Part shown: positions 36,810 to 45,067 of the stretch, piece by piece
How positions within the stretch are numbered: the first letter of the stretch is position 1
Layout: every line of letters starts with the position of its first letter
Virus record (IMG/VR): IMGVR_UViG_3300046698_000540
Coordinates: 36,370 to 100,369 of that record
Direction: 5' to 3' (one strand)
Length of the DNA: 64,000 nucleotides
Origin: a virus
Translations under genes and position numbers: made by a program
Notes under the pieces: generated by a model
What the model saw: the letters and a program-made list of their open reading frames with translations, nothing else
The model's database searches: none
What the model was told of the DNA's origin: nothing

Positions 36810-37895
36810 TCACACTTTGTAATCGGAGCGCACCGACACCGACGCCCCCGCGCGGCTGAACTCGACCGAGCACTGGTTGTACGTGCCCGACTCGTACCAG
36901 CTCGTAATCTTGGGGTACGCCTCGCTGTCTCCGACCTTCAGGTAGCCCTTCGCGCGCCACGGCGGAACATGGGTCGCGGCGAAGCGCAGCGGCACAGTCC
37001 GGTAGTGGATCCGCCGCTCCGCGATGCCCTGCGGAGTCCCCGGCGCCGGCTGTGCGAAATTGAGCTGGATGAAATCCCGCCCCCACTCCGGCTCCGCGCC
37101 GGTTCCCCGGAGCTTGTGCCGCGCGAGAGCGCCGGCCAGATACTCGGCCAGCTTCCAGGTCTGTTCCTTAATGGGCATGCCGGGAAACCACTTGGCGTAC
37201 TGGTGCCGGTAGAAGTCCCTCTGCTCTTGGGGAATCAAGCCCTGCCAACCGATGTCGGTCAGCTCGCTTGGACCTGGCTGGATGCCGTAGAGATCCGTCC
37301 GCTCCAGATACAACTGGAAGACCGGCGCCAACGTGCCCGCTTGGAAGTCGTACTCCTTCGGGTCCATCAACGCGCTCTCCAGCACCGGACGCAGGAAGCG
37401 GAAGTTCAGCACGTCCACCAGGGCGAGGAAATCGCGAACATACGTCTCGCTCGACCGGAGCGCCGCGTCCCCTTCCGACTTGAAGAGGTACTTGCCGCCC
37501 ACGTCCTCGATCCGCATGTTCATCCGCAGGCCCGGCTCGTAATAGCGCCGCACGCGTCCCTGGAGGCACTGGAGAGTCTTCAACCCCATCAGCTCCGCCA
37601 CATCCACGCTCTCGCCATTGATAGGCTTCTTGCTGCCCCACGGCACCAGGAACGGGATCGGAGACCCCTCCTCGATATGCTTCCGCAGGACCGCTCGAAT
37701 CGCCACCAGGCTTTCCGGATTGGGCGCCGGTCCGAACCTCGACTGGTTCGTTCCGATGATCTCGGCTGCCACCAGCTCCAACGTCGTCGCCTTGTCACCG
37801 CGGTTCGACCCTGGAAACTCGCGCGCCAGCGCCCGCTGGATCACCTCTCCATAAGGATTGTCCAGCTCACTTACGTGAATCTTCAAATCATTCAT
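36810..37895 (-). CDS. Possible divergent isonitrile-synthase-like (PvcA/Dit1) protein
   Basis: Start MNDLKI after ribozyme RBS; IPFLVPWGSKK..DVAEL..YEPG..IED and HVPPW loosely match the family pattern. Confidence 0.45.
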   Translation of the reverse strand: MNDLKIHVSELDNPYGEVIQRALAREFPGSNRGDKATTLELVAAEIIGTNQSRFGPAPNPESLVAIRAVLRKHIEEGSPIPFLVPWGSKKPINGESVDVAELMGLKTLQCLQGRVRRYYEPGLRMNMRIEDVGGKYLFKSEGDAALRSSETYVRDFLALVDVLNFRFLRPVLESALMDPKEYDFQAGTLAPVFQLYLERTDLYGIQPGPSELTDIGWQGLIPQEQRDFYRHQYAKWFPGMPIKEQTWKLAEYLAGALARHKLRGTGAEPEWGRDFIQLNFAQPAPGTPQGIAERRIHYRTVPLRFAATHVPPWRAKGYLKVGDSEAYPKITSWYESGTYNQCSVEFSRAGASVSVRSDYKV

Positions 37896-37926
37896 CTGTT
37901 TTGTCCCGGCCTTTCTCCGGGGGCTA

Positions 37927-37980
37927 TCGCCTACACGTCTCGTGTTTCGACTCGGAGCCTCCGAATCCTCTTCAGGGCGA
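37927..37980 (-). ncRNA. Type I hammerhead ribozyme A
   Basis: UCGCC CUGAAGA G GAUUCGG-AGGCU-CCGAGUC GAAA CACG-AGA-CGUG UA^GGCGA. Confidence 0.85.
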
Positions 37981-38016
37981 AAAATTCCTGGCCGGGGCAT
38001 GGCGTCCCCGGCCAGG
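37981..38016 (-). terminator. Terminator-like hairpin upstream of ribozyme A
   Basis: 11-bp stem CCUGGCCGGGG/CCCCGGCCAGG then AAUUUUU. Confidence 0.55.
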
Positions 38017-38042
38017 CGGCGAAAGCTCACGCGTGCAGCCAA

Positions 38043-38930
38043 CTACGCCGCGGACGTGGGAGCGGAGGGAAACAAACTCTGTTGCTGTTTGGCGGGTTTG
38101 GGAGCATTCGGAATCGCCTTCCGGGATACTACCGCCTTGCGGTTCTCCTCAAAATCAGAGAGCTCGCCGGGTGTCGGCTTGCGCACCATCGCCAGCCGGC
38201 ATTTGTAAGTGCTGTCCGTGTATTCTCCGCTGTTGCTCCGGATCAGCTCCACAGTCTCCACGGCATACGCCGGATCCTCGCCCTCCTCCAGGTAGTCGGG
38301 ATTATAGGTCACCACTTTGAAGTGGCCGTCCTTCCCGATCTCCTGGACTTGCGCGAGAACCACACCGGGCGCCCAATCCCCGTCCCCCGTAACTTTGGGG
38401 TACACGAGCGCGGCCACGTCGCCTACCTTGAGGGCGGCTTTGTCCGGCGAACGCTGCGCCGAACTGGACCGGATGCCTTCGAGAGCATCCCGCTGCTCCT
38501 TATTGGGCCGTTTCACTATCACTACGCGCTCATCGTTGGCATCGATGATCTCAGTGCTGACCCCCCGGCCATTTTCGCGCCGCTTGGTCAACCTCTCCGC
38601 CACTTTCAAAGAGCCTGCACGGGGCGGTTTGTTCGGGAACAGGAACTTGATTGACGCATCGGCGCCGTCCTGAGAAACGGTCACCACTTCCGCGCCATAC
38701 ACGCCGGGAATGCGCCCCGGCTCCATCGCGTACGCGACCGTAATCAGATCGCCCGCCCGTAGCCCTTTCAGCGTTGCCAGCGCCGGCAGAGTATCTGGTG
38801 GCGGAGTGGAATCCGTCGCCACGGGAACCACCTTGGGCGGCTCCTTTTTCTTGATTACCTTCTTCCCTTCCAGAGCGCCCACCAGTTTTGTGGCGAACTC
38901 CCCTTCCGGTTTTTTCTTTGCCATGTTCAT
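38043..38930 (-). CDS. Hypothetical protein
   Basis: Start MNMAKKK after GGAAAGGA hairpin. Confidence 0.65.
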   Translation of the reverse strand: MNMAKKKPEGEFATKLVGALEGKKVIKKKEPPKVVPVATDSTPPPDTLPALATLKGLRAGDLITVAYAMEPGRIPGVYGAEVVTVSQDGADASIKFLFPNKPPRAGSLKVAERLTKRRENGRGVSTEIIDANDERVVIVKRPNKEQRDALEGIRSSSAQRSPDKAALKVGDVAALVYPKVTGDGDWAPGVVLAQVQEIGKDGHFKVVTYNPDYLEEGEDPAYAVETVELIRSNSGEYTDSTYKCRLAMVRKPTPGELSDFEENRKAVVSRKAIPNAPKPAKQQQSLFPSAPTSAA

Positions 38931-38966
38931 CAGGGGTCCTTTCCACCCCAGACTGCTGCCTTCGAA

Positions 38967-39054
38967 TCGCAGCCGTCTCTTGGGCGCGCTCGACGTGTTC
39001 CTCGCCGAGAGACTTTCGTCCGGGATGGGTCCCGCGCCCAAGACGCGGCTGCGA
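38967..39054 (-). ncRNA. Unknown multi-stem structured RNA element
   Basis: Long closing stem UCGCAGCCG..UCUUGGGCGCG / CGCGCCCAAGA..CGGCUGCGA enclosing three hairpins, one with a GAAA tetraloop. Confidence 0.55.
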
Positions 39055-39071
39055 ACCGCGCCACTACCTGC

Positions 39072-39341
39072 CTATTCCGGGCGATTCATCAGCGATCGCA
39101 GCTTGTCTGCAATCCGCCCGAACAGGTTCTTTTGTTTCCGTTGCTGCCGCTCGACCTGTTGTTGAAACCAGGGCGGCCTGTGTAGAACCGAAGTCACCTT
39201 CACTTCCTTCGGCCCTTTCTTTGTGGGGACTTCCACCGTCGCCGTGCTACGACCGGCGCCGCGGTGATGAACGGGCGCTGCCGCCCCCGCTCCCAAATTG
39301 TATCTGTTGTCTTTTCCAATCGCGAAAAAATGATGCGCCAT
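39072..39341 (-). CDS. Small basic protein
   Basis: Start MAHHFF after GAGGAGG. Confidence 0.55.
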   Translation of the reverse strand: MAHHFFAIGKDNRYNLGAGAAAPVHHRGAGRSTATVEVPTKKGPKEVKVTSVLHRPPWFQQQVERQQRKQKNLFGRIADKLRSLMNRPE

Positions 39342-40072
39342 TACACCTCCTCGAATAACCCTGCCTGACCTCCCCACGGCGCAACCTGCCGCTGTGTGGG
39401 CCTTCCTTCGTTGTAACCTCCGATTCGAGCCTTGCGCAGCCTCTCGTATTCCTCGGCTTCCTCCCGGACCCCGAGCCGGATCGCTATGCCCGATCTCTCG
39501 TTGTCCGTATCCCACCAGCCGCCAAGGCCGTCCCTTGCCATCAACACGTCTTCCGGCTCCGCCTCTTCATACTCAAAGCGGATCTTCAGCACGTTCTGCT
39601 CCGGAATTTCCAAGACCCGGCCGATATATTCGCCGGCATCATCACCTGGCCAAGGATACATGGCCACAACGATGTCTCCGAACGTGAATGGCCCTTCCTT
39701 CCGGACCGGGAAGCACTCGCGGAGGCACATAGGGCAGTAACCCTTCCCCGCGAAATACTCCAGCACCTTGACGAACCAAGGCTTTCCGCAGATATCGCAC
39801 TCTGCCGATACCTGGTTGACTTGGACAGGCGGCAACTCAATGACGGGAACCTCACCGTTCAGGTGCTGTTCCGTTCTGAGCCACAATCTCTGCCCGTGGC
39901 CGATCCCGACGCCCACGCCGTGCTCCTTAAAATGCCCCAGGCACATATTCCGCCAAGGGCCGGCCTTTGTGATGCCGTCGTACCGCGCCAACAGCCGCTG
40001 GTCGCGGTCCTTCTTGTGCTTGCAAAAATCGCAAGGGGGAAGTTTCTCTACTGTTCTTTCTTCACCGTGCAT
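39341..40072 (-). CDS. Zinc-finger domain protein
   Basis: CDFC...GPWRNMCLGHF...GVGIGHGQ, second CDIC..CPMC. Confidence 0.65.
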   Translation of the reverse strand: MHGEERTVEKLPPCDFCKHKKDRDQRLLARYDGITKAGPWRNMCLGHFKEHGVGVGIGHGQRLWLRTEQHLNGEVPVIELPPVQVNQVSAECDICGKPWFVKVLEYFAGKGYCPMCLRECFPVRKEGPFTFGDIVVAMYPWPGDDAGEYIGRVLEIPEQNVLKIRFEYEEAEPEDVLMARDGLGGWWDTDNERSGIAIRLGVREEAEEYERLRKARIGGYNEGRPTQRQVAPWGGQAGLFEEV

Positions 40073-40230
40073 GGTGGTACCTCCTCCAAGGCGACCCGAC
40101 TACGCCGCCAGATAATGCAGGAATACCCTGTCGAAAGGGCCGTATCTTTGGCGGCTTTTCTGTTTGAATACGGACCATACAACCGATCCGTTCCTTTCAC
40201 TTCCACCTCATACTCAATAGAATTGGCCAT
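40048..40230 (-). CDS. Small hypothetical protein
   Basis: Likely start MANSIEY. Confidence 0.5.
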   Translation of the reverse strand: MANSIEYEVEVKGTDRLYGPYSNRKAAKDTALSTGYSCIIWRRSRVALEEVPPCTVKKEQ

Positions 40231-40237
40231 GCCGCCC

Positions 40238-40420
40238 CTACTTTCTTCTCTTCGCCAGGCGCTGGCACTTCCCACAGGTTACCCGCTTCGGGTCCGACGT
40301 GGAAGGAAGCCTGGACTTATCTGTATCCAACAGCTCAGCCTTTGCGTAGCACGCCGGAAAGCGCATGCCTGCATTGATAAACAACCTTTGGTCCTGCAAA
40401 TGAATTTTTGCCATGTTCAC
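40238..40420 (-). CDS. Small hypothetical protein
   Basis: Follows RBS hairpin of ribozyme C. Confidence 0.6.
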   Translation of the reverse strand: MNMAKIHLQDQRLFINAGMRFPACYAKAELLDTDKSRLPSTSDPKRVTCGKCQRLAKRRK

Positions 40421-40441
40421 CGCGTCCTTTCTCCGCGAGGC

Positions 40442-40506
40442 TTTCGCCTACCTCCCTGTGCGGGAGGTTTCGAGCCGGCGCCCACCGGCCCATCTTCAGG
40501 ACGAAA
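40442..40506 (-). ncRNA. Type I hammerhead ribozyme C
   Basis: UUUCGUC CUGAAGA UG GGCCGG-UGGGCG-CCGGCU C GAAA CCUCCC-GCACA-GGGAGG UA^GGCGAAA. Confidence 0.88.
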
Positions 40507-40834
40507 TTTCCGCTCTTGTGTCTCCCAAGATCGTGATTGAGCTGTGGGTTTCCTTCCATGCAACCGCAGCCACATGAAAGCTCTTCAGCCTATCGATCTG
40601 TTGCGTGACCCAGAACGCTTGCGTTTCCAATCCTACTTGCATATACATGGTCAGCAGGATATGCGTTCCTTTCAACACCATCCCCCGATCCGCGAACCTG
40701 CCTTCTACCGCCATGGGGGGCCGCCCGGTGTGCATGATGCTGTAAACACTCACGACCCCGGCGTACCGCAAATACTCGGTCACCACGGCGCCCGGATCGG
40801 GCACCAGCATGGTGATAGCCACTCTTGTTGCCAT
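40496..40834 (-). CDS. Hypothetical protein
   Basis: Between ribozymes D and C; stop codon lies in the CUGA core of C. Confidence 0.6.
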   Translation of the reverse strand: MATRVAITMLVPDPGAVVTEYLRYAGVVSVYSIMHTGRPPMAVEGRFADRGMVLKGTHILLTMYMQVGLETQAFWVTQQIDRLKSFHVAAVAWKETHSSITILGDTRAEISS

Positions 40835-40862
40835 TTTTCAAAGGCTCCTTTCCAGCCTAGCT

Positions 40863-40929
40863 TTCGCCTATGGCGGGCCTCCCGGCCGGCCATTTCGACC
40901 TGGAGCCACCAGGTTCTCTTCGGGGCGAA
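40863..40929 (-). ncRNA. Type I hammerhead ribozyme D (CCGAAGA core)
   Basis: UUCGCC CCGAAGA GA ACCUGG-UGGCU-CCAGGU CGAAA UGGC..GCCA UA^GGCGAA. Confidence 0.8.
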
Positions 40930-41274
40930 CTACTCCGTTTCTTCCCATGGCTTTTCGCCGGGCTCCTGGTACAGGGCCAGGCCACAAGAATTATGCAAAG
41001 CTTCCCACAACCGGTCGCCGCGGGCCAGCAACTCCTCCTTGGGTTGCAACTTCTTGTGATTCCCAACAAAGCCTTGTTCCTCGGGAGTCGTTTGATCCAT
41101 TGCATCTCCTGCCTGTTCCAGCAGCTCCGCCATGTAGGTTTGCGCGTCATCCCATTCTGCGAGAGACCGGGCCGCCATCATCACCAATGACAGGCGCGCG
41201 ATCGATCTAGCCCAGGTTCTCAGCTTTACAAGCGTGATTTGGGCATTCGTCAATTCTGTTGGTATTGTTGCCAT
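40930..41274 (-). CDS. Hypothetical protein
   Basis: Between ribozymes E and D. Confidence 0.65.
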   Translation of the reverse strand: MATIPTELTNAQITLVKLRTWARSIARLSLVMMAARSLAEWDDAQTYMAELLEQAGDAMDQTTPEEQGFVGNHKKLQPKEELLARGDRLWEALHNSCGLALYQEPGEKPWEETE

Positions 41275-41300
41275 TTCAAAGCTCCTTTCCAGCTTGGCTT

Positions 41301-41359
41301 TCGCCTACCGGCTGTAGAGGCCGGTTTCATCCGGGCGCCGCCCGAACTCTTCAGGACGA
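41301..41359 (-). ncRNA. Type I hammerhead ribozyme E
   Basis: UCGUC CUGAAGA G UUCGGG-CGGCG-CCCGGA U GAAA CCGGC-CUCUACA-GCCGG UA^GGCGA. Confidence 0.88.
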
Positions 41360-41827
41360 TTACAAGGTGTCCGCAGCGTTTCCTTCAGGATCATCTCCAG
41401 CGAAAAACGCTCTCTGGCCCTCCAGTTTCGCCAGAGTCTTCCGCTGTTCCTCCACTTCGATCCCAACACCCTGCTTGCCGTACAGCCAAGCAATCACCAG
41501 TTCCAACGATGCGTCCTCGTAACACATCTCCTGGTGGTTCACCGGCACGGCATAGAACCTGCTGGCCCCCACTTTGTACACCATGCCGATCCCCTGCTCG
41601 CCTGGATGTAGACGCACCTCGTAGCAGGGCGCCAGTAGCAGGTTTATGCCGTGATACCTGGCGGGGATTGCCAACAGGCGATTTTGCATCTGCTTTTCCG
41701 CCCGTGCCAGTTCCTCGGATTCCAACTGCGCTTCGTTTCGTTTTGCCATTGCTTTCTCACTCCTGTCCAAATATGCCAGCAGATCGGTCCGATTCCGTTC
41801 GCAATGATCTTCAAATTCGACCATCAT
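41360..41827 (-). CDS. Hypothetical protein
   Basis: Between ribozymes F and E. Confidence 0.65.
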   Translation of the reverse strand: MMVEFEDHCERNRTDLLAYLDRSEKAMAKRNEAQLESEELARAEKQMQNRLLAIPARYHGINLLLAPCYEVRLHPGEQGIGMVYKVGASRFYAVPVNHQEMCYEDASLELVIAWLYGKQGVGIEVEEQRKTLAKLEGQRAFFAGDDPEGNAADTL

Positions 41828-41858
41828 AATCTTTTAGCCGGTCCTTTCCACCGGAGCT

Positions 41859-41918
41859 TTCGCCGACCGCCTTGTCTGGCGGTTTCGTCCCTGCGCTACA
41901 GGAACTCATCGGGGCGAA
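41859..41918 (-). ncRNA. Type I hammerhead ribozyme F (CCGAUGA core)
   Basis: UUCGCC CCGAUGA G UUCCUG-UAGCG-CAGGGA C GAAA CCGCC-AGACAA-GGCGG UC^GGCGAA. Confidence 0.82.
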
Positions 41919-42109
41919 TTTCTTTCCTCTTCATTTTCCCGGAGAGCCTTGTCGAATTCACTATTGCGTTTAGCTCTCTCGGAGGTAGCTTCTCGCCAAA
42001 CATGCCTGTCAGTTTGCGAGGCATTTGGATGCTCAAGACTATCCAGGATTGCAAACGCAATAACGAAGACAAAAAGCCCAAGCCAGCAGAGTTTCATTTC
42101 ACGTTTCAT
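41906..42109 (-). CDS. Small membrane-anchored protein
   Basis: MKREMKLCWLGLFVFVIAFAIL; stop codon lies in the core of ribozyme F. Confidence 0.6.
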   Translation of the reverse strand: MKREMKLCWLGLFVFVIAFAILDSLEHPNASQTDRHVWREATSERAKRNSEFDKALRENEEERNSPR

Positions 42110-42132
42110 AAGAGCTCCTTTCAAGCCCAGCT

Positions 42133-42194
42133 TTCGCCTATCCCCCTGAGCGGGGGATTTCGGCCGGAAGCCATCCGGCCATCATCGGGGCGAA
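42133..42194 (-). ncRNA. Type I hammerhead ribozyme G (CCGAUGA core)
   Basis: UUCGCC CCGAUGA U GGCCGGA-UGGCU-UCCGGCC GAAA UCCCCC-GCUCA-GGGGGA UA^GGCGAA. Confidence 0.82.
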
Positions 42195-42581
42195 CTACCA
42201 TTCCAGGTTGTTGAGCGCCGCCAGTACCATAACCTCGACCGGGGTCAACGCCACCACAAAGACGTCCACCACGATAGCGCCCTGGAGCGCTTCGTGATGC
42301 TGGCCGCCGATCGCGTGTTCCTTCAGCGGTTCCACCAGATCCTCCAGGCGGATTTTTTCCTGGACGGGAAGACGATTCCTGGTATCCTTCACCAGCGCCT
42401 GACCCGTGCCCAATCCCAATCGGCAGCCCAGGCCGTCGAAATGCACCTGGCACAGGTTTGCCCAGCACATGCCGCCCCATCCGGGGAGCTTCGCGCTGTA
42501 CAACGCCGGCGTCTGTTGATCCTCCGCCCTGCACACATCGCAGTCCGGACGCTCTCTCACCATCACTTTATTGTTTGCCAT
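42195..42581 (-). CDS. Zinc-finger domain protein
   Basis: CDVC...WANLCQVHF...LGLGTGQ, same domain as 39341..40072. Confidence 0.65.
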   Translation of the reverse strand: MANNKVMVRERPDCDVCRAEDQQTPALYSAKLPGWGGMCWANLCQVHFDGLGCRLGLGTGQALVKDTRNRLPVQEKIRLEDLVEPLKEHAIGGQHHEALQGAIVVDVFVVALTPVEVMVLAALNNLEW

Positions 42582-42614
42582 GTTCGTTTGATTCGGCTCC
42601 TTTCCAGCCGGGCT

Positions 42615-42681
42615 TTCGCCTATGCCCCCTACTTCTTGGGGGCATTTCGCTTCCGCGCCACGGAAGCCTCTTCAGGGCGAA
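42615..42681 (-). ncRNA. Type I hammerhead ribozyme H
   Basis: UUCGCC CUGAAGA G GCUUCCG-UGGCG-CGGAAGC GAAA UGCCCCC-8nt-GGGGGCA UA^GGCGAA. Confidence 0.9.
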
Positions 42682-42778
42682 GATTCTCTCTGCGCGCCCA
42701 AAAAAATCCGGCCACGCAGGAGCACTACCTGGGCACCACACCGGCATGTGGCCGATGTCCCGCATACGCAGGGCCGGA

Positions 42779-43009
42779 TCATGCCGCGTTCTCGAAATGG
42801 AACCGCTCGCTGCGGCTGTAGCCCGGCCGCGGATTCCTGACCGTCCACGAGCCGTCCGCCTTCTCGCGCAACATCGTGCGCAGCTTCGAAGGCCCTGACT
42901 GAACCCCAATGCTCAGGGCCCCGGTCGTAGTGGCGAAGGTGTTGAACTCCACTCCCATCGCGCGCAACATGTTCCGCAGAATTCTGTTCTGTCTCTGTAG
43001 TCTTTTCAT
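42779..43009 (-). CDS. Hypothetical protein
   Basis: Between ribozymes I and H. Confidence 0.6.
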   Translation of the reverse strand: MKRLQRQNRILRNMLRAMGVEFNTFATTTGALSIGVQSGPSKLRTMLREKADGSWTVRNPRPGYSRSERFHFENAA

Positions 43010-43043
43010 ATTCGTGTTTGTCTCATCCTTTCCATGAGGGCTT

Positions 43044-43111
43044 TCGCCTAACGGCCCGCCTCCTTTTCGGGCCGTTTTCGGGGAGTTGCCGACTCCCCAT
43101 CTTCAGGGCGA
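43044..43111 (-). ncRNA. Type I hammerhead ribozyme I
   Basis: UCGCC CUGAAGA U GGGGAGU-CGGCA-ACUCCCC GAAA ACGGCCCG-9nt-CGGGCCGU UA^GGCGA. Confidence 0.88.
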
Positions 43112-43891
43112 TTACGCGGCGGCCGACTGCTTCTCCGTGGCCGCTTCCCACTTCGCGTACACTTCCTCCCACGCGGCGTCCGCGCCAATTTCCTTGGCCT
43201 TCACCCGCGCTTCCTCCACCAGCTTCACGTGCGCCGGTTTCATCGACGACTTCCAGGTCGCCTCCGCCTTCTTCCGATCGCCCGCGGCCGCCAGCAACCC
43301 TTCCAGGTCCTTGGCGCCGTAGAACTCGATCGCGCCGTTGCCCAGCGGATCCGTGCACTCGACCGCGATCGGCGTCTTCTTCGCCGTCGTGCGCAGCCCA
43401 ACCACCGTGAACTCGTACGGGTACTGGGGATCCAGGTCGTCGTCCGGGTCGGGCACGTGATACTTACGCCCGAGCCATTCCGGATTCACACCCTCGAAGT
43501 CCTTCGCCCGCTCGATCCACAGCGTCTGCATCGAGGGAACCGGCGCGCCGGCTTCGTTCCGGTACACCAGGTCCACGGCCACATACGGCGCCGTAACCGC
43601 GAAGTCCTCGACCGCCACCTGACGGCTGCCGAGCGCCTGCTCCACGATCTTCTCGAAGTCTCCGTCCGCGATTCCCAGGTCCACCGAGAACCCAAGACTC
43701 ACGTACCCGGAGTCCGTCGCGTCGTCCGATTCCTCGACCTTCACCGAGACTTTCGCCCGCGCTACCAGAGTTTCCAGTTTTGCGAGGATCTCGGATCGAA
43801 TGGCGGCCGTCGTCGCTTCGTCGAACTTCACCGGCACGAATTGCGATTTTTCCGCGACTGCAACTGCTTCTTTTCTGTTCTTGTTTGCCAT
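43112..43891 (-). CDS. Hypothetical acidic protein
   Basis: 259 aa between ribozymes J and I; strongly G/C-ending codons. Confidence 0.7.
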   Translation of the reverse strand: MANKNRKEAVAVAEKSQFVPVKFDEATTAAIRSEILAKLETLVARAKVSVKVEESDDATDSGYVSLGFSVDLGIADGDFEKIVEQALGSRQVAVEDFAVTAPYVAVDLVYRNEAGAPVPSMQTLWIERAKDFEGVNPEWLGRKYHVPDPDDDLDPQYPYEFTVVGLRTTAKKTPIAVECTDPLGNGAIEFYGAKDLEGLLAAAGDRKKAEATWKSSMKPAHVKLVEEARVKAKEIGADAAWEEVYAKWEAATEKQSAAA

Positions 43892-43924
43892 AACGTTTGT
43901 AAACCCGTCCTTTCCACGGGGGCT

Positions 43925-43981
43925 TTCGCCGACGCCTCACGGCGTTTCGACCTGGCGCCACCAGGCCTTCATCGGGGCGAA
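43925..43981 (-). ncRNA. Type I hammerhead ribozyme J (CCGAUGA core)
   Basis: UUCGCC CCGAUGA A GGCCUGG-UGGCG-CCAGGUC GAAA CGCC-GUGA-GGCG UC^GGCGAA. Confidence 0.82.
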
Positions 43982-44383
43982 CTACTCTACGCTTGTGTGA
44001 ATCCGGTTGCACCGGCAGCCTGGGGAATCGCAGAACTCGCTTTCCGCGTCCGCTTCGCTCACCAGGTCCTTGAACTGAAGCGGCTCCGATTCCAGATCCT
44101 CGTCGTACACCGAGGCCACCTGGGCCATGGACGTTCTTGCATCCTCGGCCGCGCCTGGCAGCGAGTCGTACCCTGCGTCGGTCAGTTCGTTGATCCTGGT
44201 TTCGATCAACCCGTTTGGCCCCACCGGATCCATTTCTTCGGAAGTGCATCCCGTTTCCGGATCCGTCTCTTCGCGCAAAAAGTCCGCGGCCAAGACCTCA
44301 TCCTGCATTGCCTCCCGGCAGTCCTCGCAGGGCTCTTCCAAATGCTGGCAATCTTCGCAACGAACTACTATTCCTTTTGCCAT
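43982..44383 (-). CDS. Acidic Cys-motif protein
   Basis: Start MAKGIV; CEDC..CEDC and C-terminal Cys cluster; between ribozymes K and J. Confidence 0.65.
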   Translation of the reverse strand: MAKGIVVRCEDCQHLEEPCEDCREAMQDEVLAADFLREETDPETGCTSEEMDPVGPNGLIETRINELTDAGYDSLPGAAEDARTSMAQVASVYDEDLESEPLQFKDLVSEADAESEFCDSPGCRCNRIHTSVE

Positions 44384-44414
44384 ATCGTTCAACCAGGTCC
44401 TTTCCACCTGAGCT

Positions 44415-44480
44415 TTCGCCTATTCATGCCGTCTGGACATAAATTTCGGCCGGGCGCTGCCCAGCCATCTTCAGGACGAA
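44415..44480 (-). ncRNA. Type I hammerhead ribozyme K
   Basis: UUCGUC CUGAAGA U GGCUGGG-CAGCG-CCCGGCC GAAA UUUAUGUC-CAGAC-GGCAUGAA UA^GGCGAA. Confidence 0.88.
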
Positions 44481-45038
44481 TTGTATTTTCCCACCACACT
44501 TCCCGCGGGGTTATGAGGCCCGCGGGTTCGCTTTGAATTCGACTCTCCAGTTTGCTTCCCAGTCCGAACGTTGCCCAAGTTGGGCGCCCCCGTCAGGGGA
44601 CCGTGTTACACCAGGCCAATTCGCCGCATCGTAAATCCCAGGGGCAAGCTCGTTCTGCCCAAAAATGTCACGACGATCTTCGCCGGGGACGTTTGCGGGG
44701 ACATGGTGATTCGACCGGGTAGCGAATGTCATCTGAGAAAGGAAAGGTATTAAAATGACATCCGTCGCCGGAGCCGTTTTCCGTATTCAATTGTCAAATA
44801 TCGCTTGGGTGCCTTCCCCGATCGGGAGCGGTTGGAGGGATTGTGCTGTGGCGGGAGTGGCCAGGGCTTTTGAGTCGTCGCGGCTTTTCACCAGCACCGA
44901 AATGCTGTGCACCTTGATAGGTAACGCCGAAACTTCCACCTCACCGAAGTGAGGACCGTTTCTGCCACCCGGTAGCACCGCCCCCGAAAGGGTCGGCCCC
45001 GGTTTGGTTCCCCCTTGTGAGGGGAGGGGTATGATTTA

Positions 45039-45067
45039 AGTATAGTATATCGTTGGGTATTTGTAAA
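45039..45067 (-). promoter_or_regulatory. Strong sigma70-like early promoter
   Basis: TTTACA-17 bp-TATACT; near-identical copy at 49759..49787. Confidence 0.85.

Follow-up and report, generated by a model that had tools for sequence, protein, structure and literature searches.

Why should ten ribozyme-like modules in one phage genome all end in the same few nucleotides, each followed by a small hairpin and, shortly behind it, a start codon? The modules lie on the minus strand at positions 37893-44482 of a 64,000-nucleotide stretch of viral DNA (the window), which is part of a 100,369-base IMG/VR record (IMGVR_UViG_3300046698_000540) that is linear and about 80% complete; the phage, of approximately 100 kb, recurs in many peat metagenomes. 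All ten are hammerhead-like, of type I and of one design, and together they occupy 6.6 kb. The original prediction read the sequence behind each cut site as a standard leader that carries the Shine-Dalgarno (SD) sequence in a hairpin loop. The reading that we favour, with a probability of roughly 0.55, is that two elements meet here, a standard ribozyme junction and a hairpin that would present the SD and give structure to the 5′ end of each processed RNA.

The ribozyme junction and the covarying hairpin

Each module reads, from 5′ to 3′, as a (U/A)UCG(C/U)C strand of 5-6 nucleotides (nt), a core C(U/C)GA(A/U)GA, a G+C-rich stem II, GAAA, stem III, U(A/C) and GGCGAAAGC. This is the architecture of a type-I hammerhead with an open stem I, and the cut is predicted just 5′ of the first G in GGCGAAAGC (Table 1). 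The hammerhead core was found in 10/10 modules, namely C(U/C)GA(A/U)GA, GAAA and U(A/C) followed by the G at the cut (G5 A6 N7 G8 A9, G12 A13 A14, and H17 before the cut), with an extra nucleotide between A9 and the first stem II pair (10.1) in five of them (K, J, I, G and C). GGCGAAAGC is exact in nine of the ten, module A having GGCGAUAGC. The modules were also recovered by a finder that ignored the leader, counted A15.1 within stem III and demanded at least 4 bp in stems II and III, and GGCGAAAGC was the only junction seen in related loci.

Relatives were collected by pattern scans of metagenome and viral contigs; the patterns required GGCGAAAGC, so the frequency of this junction among hammerheads at large cannot be judged from them. 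The first scan of viral contigs returned one true relative, L030. The relatives comprise near-identical phages (L277, L269 and L298, approximately 97% identity), more distant lineages of the same design (L030/L294 and L289) and hammerheads that have the same GGCGAAAGC end and no hairpin, both in unrelated viral or metagenome contigs (L155, L164, L173, L278, L280 and L292) and at L269:3262-3351. A scan of genome contigs with GGCGAAAGCN6GGAAAGG gave 120 matches, nearly all of them the Walker A motif of sigma-54-type activators.

An alignment of 20 distinct full modules from this phage and its relatives was paired in 92.9% of its cells, a value reached by none of 500 shuffles, and pairs had changed on both sides at 6/7 positions of stem II, 5/6 of stem III and 5/5 of the hairpin; A15.1-U16.1 was A-U in all 20 rows. 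Stem I was 92.5% paired and its 3′ strand, GGCGAA, never changed. This strand belongs to GGCGAAAGC, and its partner is the (U/A)UCG(C/U)C strand just 5′ of the core. Further on, GC(C/U) pairs with (G/A)GC of loop II in a pseudoknot that was 98.3% paired (G-C in 12 rows, G-U in 5 and A-U in 2), its covariation resting on one varying position out of three. Across 35 modules, loop AGC always occurred with leader GCU (4/4) and loop GGC with either GCC or GCU, and no A-C mismatch was seen. The pseudoknot is 3-4 bp long in modules that have the hairpin and, by reading of the sequences, 4-5 bp in those without it (for example AGCCA with UGGCU). Contacts between stems I and II are of a kind known to speed hammerheads. 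Pseudoknots between these stems have been described as a functionally important hammerhead feature, found in about 40% of representatives (PMC3088659). By its pairing pattern, GGCGAAAGC is part of the ribozyme, as the 3′ strand of stem I and as pseudoknot partner, and not a separate leader. The standard leader originally proposed is thus retained as a uniform junction plus a hairpin, but its first nine nucleotides go to the hammerhead.

Every module shares its stem I and pseudoknot nucleotides, and for this reason the two ends of one processed unit (units in 40448-44420) could also meet: its 5′ leader could base-pair with the ribozyme body that it carries 3′ and so restore a complete hammerhead. 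In that permuted form no leader/loop II combination contains an A-C mismatch, and such a hammerhead would have the geometry that ligation into a circle requires. Perreault et al. 2011 sought circles in other arrays and found none (PMC3088659).

Behind each junction come one nucleotide, a 5-bp hairpin (leader positions 11-27), an A-rich spacer of 2-12 nt and an ATG; from cut to ATG the leader measures 29-39 nt. The hairpins on the minus strand agree in every coordinate and arm with the original description, as do the start codons shortly behind them. The loop is GGAAAGG closed by U-A in K, J, I, H, F, E and D. The three units once called weaker variants, A, C and G, do differ in the loop or by one wobble pair (G-U in G, U-G in C), but they still form 5 bp, and all loops are built on an invariant GAAAGG carried by about 15 different arm pairs. 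Among 16 distinct hairpins with a 7-nt loop, taken from this phage and its peat-metagenome relatives, 98.8% of the cells were paired, all five pairs had changed on both sides and 27 cells were compensatory; none of 500 shuffles scored as high, and sliding the partner by 1-3 columns gave 26-51% pairing. Three more hairpins (C, L030b and L294e) have 5-bp arms and loops of 8-9 nt. G-U pairs appear on the transcribed strand only, the other strand being left with C-A mismatches, which argues that the structure is RNA and not DNA. As judged from this covariation, the hairpin is a selected RNA structure, selected separately from the ribozyme. In the predicted folds of the processed leaders the hairpin is intact and its loop open in 11/11 cases (-3.2 to -7.6 kcal/mol).

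The hairpin is also concentrated at this locus. The pattern GCN6GGAAAGG occurs nine times in the window against 1.18 expected, seven of the nine inside the array. Over the whole 100-kb contig, 10/11 hairpins with at least 4 bp and a GGAAAGG-like loop fall within 38944-44405, in a scan that missed A and C through its loop pattern or register. One hairpin, X, stands without a ribozyme, as had been noted before: upstream of it a structure scan found no hammerhead, and Rfam gave no match at E≤10. In the relative L269, only 36 nt separate the two cistrons here, and hairpin X lies within them, directly behind the stop codon of the upstream gene.

In this phage a structured element of about 106 nt (38962-39067, minus strand) lies between the upstream stop and hairpin X. 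It consists of a long outer stem and a three-way junction, its fold has -76.1 kcal/mol (z -3.5, on 38921-39080), and GCAG stands on both flanks. The element matches no Rfam family and is missing in the 97%-identical L269; a small mobile insertion is one possible identity, a processing site of the RNase III type another.

The loop as a proposed ribosome-binding site

With its closing A, and a further G in D, E, G and H, the loop reproduces the SD motif that this phage uses most, the extended SD GAAAGGAG; GAAAGGA(G) stands with its end at 4-9 nt in most cases, and at no more than 12 nt, ahead of many of the phage's starts outside the array. The loop is complementary to a 16S rRNA 3′ tail of the type ...CCUCCUUUCU. 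With such a tail, which may differ from that of the host, the duplex is predicted at -7.2 kcal/mol when formed by the loop alone and at -11.9 kcal/mol at its strongest. No other SD core was seen in the spacers, which leaves the loop as the only SD-like element in these leaders, and in hairpin-less modules with the same GGCGAAAGC an ordinary SD stands about equally far from the cut. Taken together, the agreement with the SD motif, these plain-SD equivalents and the ribozyme-free hairpin X favour a role in binding the ribosome, and one independent of the ribozyme. A search for CCUUUCC as an antisense partner of the loop found no excess on the transcribed strand. A second SD-like sequence in a hairpin loop, GAAAAGGAGG, occurs in the stem III loop of ribozyme I (43065-43090).

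In the mechanism that we propose, the 'standard leader' would be two fused elements, GGCGAA-A-GC(C/U) of the hammerhead and the separately selected hairpin. A transcript from the candidate promoter would cut itself at every junction, and each cistron, including the first, whose long 5′ untranslated region would be cut off, would begin with the same structured leader, about 27 nt long and with a 5′-OH; 3′-terminally, the product would carry the two G+C-rich hairpins of the next ribozyme body. The leader would hold the SD unpaired and shielded from neighbouring sequence, and the 30S subunit would dock on the loop, at a classical distance from the start codon in 5/11 units, and at a docking or standby site, or with low output, in the other six. 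Released from stem I, GGC-GAAA-GC(C/U) would close as a tetraloop hairpin adjoining the SD hairpin and leave little or no single-stranded 5′ end. This mini-hairpin is predicted to have 3 bp (-3.4 or -1.7 kcal/mol), the SD hairpin itself starting at +11, and the two-hairpin 5′ end is the minimum-energy fold in 8/10 processed leaders. Since the junction is identical, any ribozyme body would fit any leader, and cassettes of leader, gene and next ribozyme body could be gained, lost or swapped without breaking a ribozyme. What the sequences show directly is the pairing with its covariation, the agreement with the SD motif, the borders of the cassettes and the existence of hairpin-less equivalents; that the RNA is cut in vivo, that ribosomes bind the loop, that the 5′ end refolds and that stability changes at all are inferences.

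A more specific version can be put forward tentatively. The junction GGCGAAAGC(C/U) and the hairpin may form a bistable standard part, which would complete the hammerhead before the cut and, after it, close as a GAAA-tetraloop mini-hairpin stacked on the SD hairpin. Refolding would then make the cut irreversible, shield the 5′-OH and present the SD, and any cassette could be inserted at any junction, in a natural 'standard part' system for shuffling early genes. We regard this version as possible, with the odds against it.

Several observations weigh against our reading. The SD motif ends 5-10 nt before the ATG, within the classical spacing of roughly 4-10 nt, in five of the eleven units (C, D, E, G and X), whereas it ends 14-16 nt before it in the other six (Table 1). 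A distance of 14-16 nt lies beyond the 4-12 nt used elsewhere in the phage and beyond efficient SD spacing; in about half of the units the loop would therefore be too distant for a classical SD. The long spacing of J is kept in the L030/L294 ortholog, and an in-frame, better-spaced UUG in K is not conserved as coding in the L030 ortholog, whose spacer has a 2-nt indel. The placing of the SD in the loop is favoured by the motif and the lack of competitors, but not by the spacing; the long-spacer loops may be docking or standby sites before an unstructured A/C-rich spacer, may represent a low-output setting, or may be read by something else. In addition, SDs elsewhere in the phage vary more than the loop with its closing U-A does, a constancy that would also fit a specific binding partner, and formation of the full SD:anti-SD helix (GGAAAGGAG) requires that some of the stem be opened. 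The 5′ mini-hairpin is short, is left out of the folds of K and G, and is inseparable by covariation from the pseudoknot constraint.

The ribozymes themselves add further points of this kind. Self-cleavage of the type-I hammerhead at each junction is assumed from the sequence. Core position 4 is C in D, F, G and J (CCGAAGA, CCGAUGA) and in many relatives, which places 4/10 modules off consensus, and U in the other six; in the window the C4 cores lie at ~40917-40923 (D), ~41906-41912 (F), ~42182-42188 (G) and ~43969-43975 (J). At gathering thresholds, Rfam reported no family in the window and called none of the ten ribozymes, and at E≤10 its sole relevant match to the array was RF03152 at module F, with 23.6 bits against a gathering threshold of 56.3. 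With Rfam nearly silent, structure and covariation were used to identify the ribozymes. Parts of the window are present in five metatranscriptome runs from peat, and the contigs of four of them were compared with it. These contigs are short, sparse and inside genes, none spanning a cut site of this phage, and one contig of a relative (X18, record 23) crosses a junction; where an RNA ends is not visible in such contigs, and the libraries may contain DNA.

The constancy of the loop and closing pair against variable arms is what one sees in protein-binding hairpins, and the hairpin might instead be a shared operator. A single trans-acting regulator, either a host protein of the CsrA/RsmA type or a phage-encoded repressor of early genes following a logic like that of T4 RegA, would then act on U-GGAAAGG-A and switch the array genes together. 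The loop holds A-N-GGA, the core of a CsrA site, which often stands in hairpin loops that overlap the SD; an operator, more readily than an SD, could stand at a long and changing distance from the ATG; and several array proteins are small and Cys-rich or basic, with no family assigned. However, no CsrA gene was found in the phage record, which is about 80% complete, no candidate regulator was identified, and the loop is the common SD of the phage, in leaders that offer no other and whose hairpin-less equivalents carry a plain one. We consider a dedicated operator unlikely, although the two roles are compatible, since ribosome and repressor could be rivals for one loop.

The position of the hairpin raises another alternative, in which it would mainly aid the ribozyme. 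It begins directly behind the pseudoknot nucleotides in every module, and there it could stack on the short (3-bp) pseudoknot helix, which ends one nucleotide before, and lock the purine-rich SD away from mispairing with pyrimidine-rich ribozyme strands during transcription. The longer pseudoknots of hairpin-less modules (4-5 against 3-4 bp) would fit such a role, as would the fact that 10/11 hairpins sit behind a ribozyme. The hairpin of gene X, which has no ribozyme in this phage or in L269, speaks against it, and so do the same-junction ribozymes that exist without a hairpin; an aid to folding also leaves the invariant SD-like loop sequence unexplained. This role, too, appears improbable as the principal one.

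Protection of the 5′ end could likewise be proposed as the main role, the mini-hairpin and the SD hairpin together blocking 5′-dependent RNase E and the 5′-exonucleolytic RNase J on the 5′-OH product. Stabilizers of the ompA type are stem-loops within a few nucleotides of the 5′ end, and adjoining hairpins are, as said, the predicted 5′ structure of most processed leaders. The expectation in the original prediction that 5′-OH ends resist decay holds for RNase E where it depends on a 5′-monophosphate, but RNase J1 degrades the 5′-OH product of the glmS ribozyme (PMC3328962, citing Collins 2007). Because the 5′-OH is not protective in every host, a structured 5′ end may be needed in some. The hairpin left over by RiboJ is likewise thought to raise mRNA stability (PMC6206723). 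Against this, the mini-hairpin is weak, and without it the SD hairpin would start 10 nt in, too far to protect; the hairpin also precedes gene X, where no 5′ end is made by processing, and again the SD-like loop goes unexplained. We find protection as the main role rather hard to credit. Last, the modules are clearly paralogous and cassette borders fall at junctions, but a functionless leader, co-copied by repeated module duplication or acting as a recombination site at the DNA level, is very improbable in view of some 15 complementary arm pairs, compensation at all five positions, a fixed loop and G-U pairs on the transcribed strand only, which point to selection on RNA.

Cassette differences and layout of the array

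Comparison with the near-identical phages revealed differences of whole units. L277 lacks leader G, gene G and ribozyme F (window 41865-42138), which joins a G-type ribozyme body to the F leader, and an additional unit of leader, gene and ribozyme separates its H ribozyme from the H leader (changes in L277:1446-2122). In L269, gene A is missing and its place is taken by a ribozyme followed by a plain SD (L269:3116-3424). The borders of these cassettes are the cleavage junctions, and the hybrid ribozymes keep their stem I and pseudoknot pairing because the interface is universal. Phages of approximately 97% identity thus differ by whole cassettes bounded at the junctions, a result that supports the earlier proposal of a portable module made of a ribozyme and a ribosome-binding site, with the gene travelling along. 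The junction is invariant while stems II and III and the hairpin arms drift with compensation, and this suggests cassette exchange as one reason for its constancy, the refolding of GGC-GAAA-GC(C/U) after release from stem I being a second candidate.

The ATGs behind the leaders open reading frames of 58-361 codons. Searches of the ten array proteins against Pfam and PHROGs gave no function, with one match to a PHROG of unknown function. No gene for RtcB was found in the phage record at its approximately 80% completeness. The start reads ATGGCAA in 7/11 genes (K, J, H, E, D, C and the second ATG of X), encoding Met-Ala and then Lys, Asn or Thr, and several long leaders have ACG 3-4 nt upstream of the ATG; this common context may reflect a shared leader ancestry or a preferred initiation context. 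At the other end of the genes, the stop codon of the upstream gene adjoins or overlaps stem I of the next ribozyme. This is the case for genes K, J, H, F and E (UAG-UUCGCC, UAA-UCGCC), and the stops of genes G (41906-41908) and D (40496-40498) are UGA within the catalytic core of the next ribozyme (CCGAUGA and CUGAAGA, respectively). Ribosomes that terminate at these stops would thus be expected to lie over stem I or to open it.

The features of the array are collected in Table 1. The promoter-like site, approximately 560 nt upstream of ribozyme K, is a candidate operon promoter by consensus match only, three such sites having been found against 2.6 expected. A strong terminator-like hairpin stands just 5′ of ribozyme A, which would therefore act only on read-through transcripts.

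Table 1. Features of the ribozyme array, in window positions. Hairpin arms are given as 5′ arm/3′ arm; bodies are the ribozyme parts 5′ of the predicted cut.
Feature	Coordinates	Strand	First G after predicted cut	GGCGAAAGC	Hairpin	ATG	SD motif end to ATG (nt)	Remarks
Promoter-like site	45039-45067	-						TTTACA-17-TATACT, 10/12 consensus match
Hammerhead K body	44421-44480	-						Stem I 5′ strand UUCGUC; core CUGAAGA; UA before cut; first ribozyme, would remove promoter-proximal 5′ untranslated region
Leader K	44381-44420	-	44420	44412-44420	44394-44410	44381-44383	14	CAGGU/ACCUG, loop GGAAAGG
Hammerhead J body	43931-43981	-						Core CCGAUGA, C at position 4
Leader J	43889-43930	-	43930	43922-43930	43904-43920	43889-43891	16	CCCGU/ACGGG
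Hammerhead I body	43049-43112	-						Core CUGAAGA
Leader I	43007-43048	-	43048	43040-43048	43022-43038	43007-43009	16	CUCAU/AUGAG
Hammerhead H body	42621-42681	-						Core CUGAAGA
Leader H	42579-42620	-	42620	42612-42620	42594-42610	42579-42581	15	CGGCU/AGCCG
Hammerhead G body	42139-42194	-						Core CCGAUGA
Leader G	42107-42138	-	42138	42130-42138	42112-42128	42107-42109	5	GGGCU/AGCUC, loop UGAAAGG; SD GAAAGGAG
Hammerhead F body	41865-41918	-						Core CCGAUGA, holds gene G stop; weak Rfam RAGATH-1-hammerhead match
Leader F	41825-41864	-	41864	41856-41864	41838-41854	41825-41827	14	CCGGU/ACCGG
Hammerhead E body	41306-41360	-						Core CUGAAGA
Leader E	41272-41305	-	41305	41297-41305	41279-41295	41272-41274	7	AAGCU/AGCUU
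Hammerhead D body	40869-40929	-						Core CCGAAGA
Leader D	40832-40868	-	40868	40860-40868	40842-40858	40832-40834	10	AGGCU/AGCCU
Hammerhead C body	40449-40505	-						Core CUGAAGA, holds gene D stop
Leader C	40412-40448	-	40448	40440-40448	40420-40438	40412-40414	10	UCGCG/CGCGG, 9-nt loop GAGAAAGGA
Leader X, without ribozyme	38922-38952	-			38933-38949	38928-38930 and 38922-38924 (in frame)	6	GGGGU/ACCCC, loop GGAAAGG
Terminator-like hairpin	37987-38016	-						Intrinsic-terminator-like, 11 bp, 10 G-C; U-run overlaps stem I 5′ strand of ribozyme A
Hammerhead A body	37932-37981	-						Core CUGAAGA; directly 3′ of terminator-like hairpin
Leader A	37893-37931	-	37931	37923-37931 (GGCGAUAGC)	37905-37921	37893-37895	14	CCCGG/CCGGG, loop AGAAAGG

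Relation to known systems

Clusters of hammerheads that flank phage and prophage genes, and that were proposed to cut long transcripts into gene-length mRNAs, were described by Perreault et al. 2011 (PMC3088659), and the role of bacterial and phage hammerheads has been an open question since. The array resembles those clusters in having hammerheads between single genes or short blocks, a pseudoknot between stems I and II, and variable genes of unknown function. It differs from them in its density, in the invariant junction and in the covarying hairpin with the SD in its loop, and the 4/10 modules with C4 would fail the filter used in that study. The terms 'Shine-Dalgarno' and 'ribosome binding' do not occur in that paper (PMC3088659), which thus describes no conserved post-cleavage leader. 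A literature search, incomplete in coverage and no proof of novelty, found no account of an SD-in-loop leader behind natural hammerheads. In the Rfam family RF03152 (RAGATH-1), too, the hammerhead is of type I and an extra hairpin accompanies it, with AAGGAG spread over loop and 3′ arm in the family consensus; that hairpin, however, lies 5′ of stem I, whereas the one described here lies 3′ of the cleavage site.

Two protein-dependent systems are comparable in part. The early transcript of T7 is cut at structured intergenic RNase III sites into individual mRNAs, with hairpins left at the new ends. There a host protein enzyme acts at long duplexes, whereas here the RNA would cut itself and leave a 5′-OH and a 2′,3′-cyclic phosphate. 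CsrA/RsmA sites have a GGA in a hairpin loop that overlaps the SD, normally with a second GGA site 10-63 nt away. The array leaders resemble such sites in sequence, in that a GGA hairpin loop coincides with the SD motif; they differ in that most have no second GGA outside the loop and in that no CsrA gene was found in the phage record.

A functional analogy may be drawn with RiboJ, which consists of the sTRSV hammerhead and a 23-nt hairpin that is thought to expose the ribosome-binding site and to stabilize the mRNA (PMC6206723, describing Lou et al. 2012). In both systems the hammerhead would remove upstream RNA to give the same 5′ end, and the product retains a hairpin ahead of the coding sequence, a layout present here in ten modules including the one before the first gene. 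RiboJ, however, is an engineered part in which hairpin and ribosome-binding site are distinct, the hairpin coming first, whereas the array is natural, has the hairpin before each cistron with the SD inside the loop, and would perform its function by the mechanism proposed above. If the predictions of a uniform 5′ end, a displayed SD and cassette exchange hold, phages have evolved the solution that synthetic biologists reached with RiboJ. Natural leaders with varied SD-to-start distances would then be ready-made insulated expression parts, and the six leaders whose SD lies 14-16 nt from the start codon offer a natural test case for long-range or standby docking of the ribosome. Hammerhead clusters that cut phage transcripts have been known since 2011; what this array appears to add is the conserved SD-in-loop leader, which ties each ribozyme to a defined element of translation.

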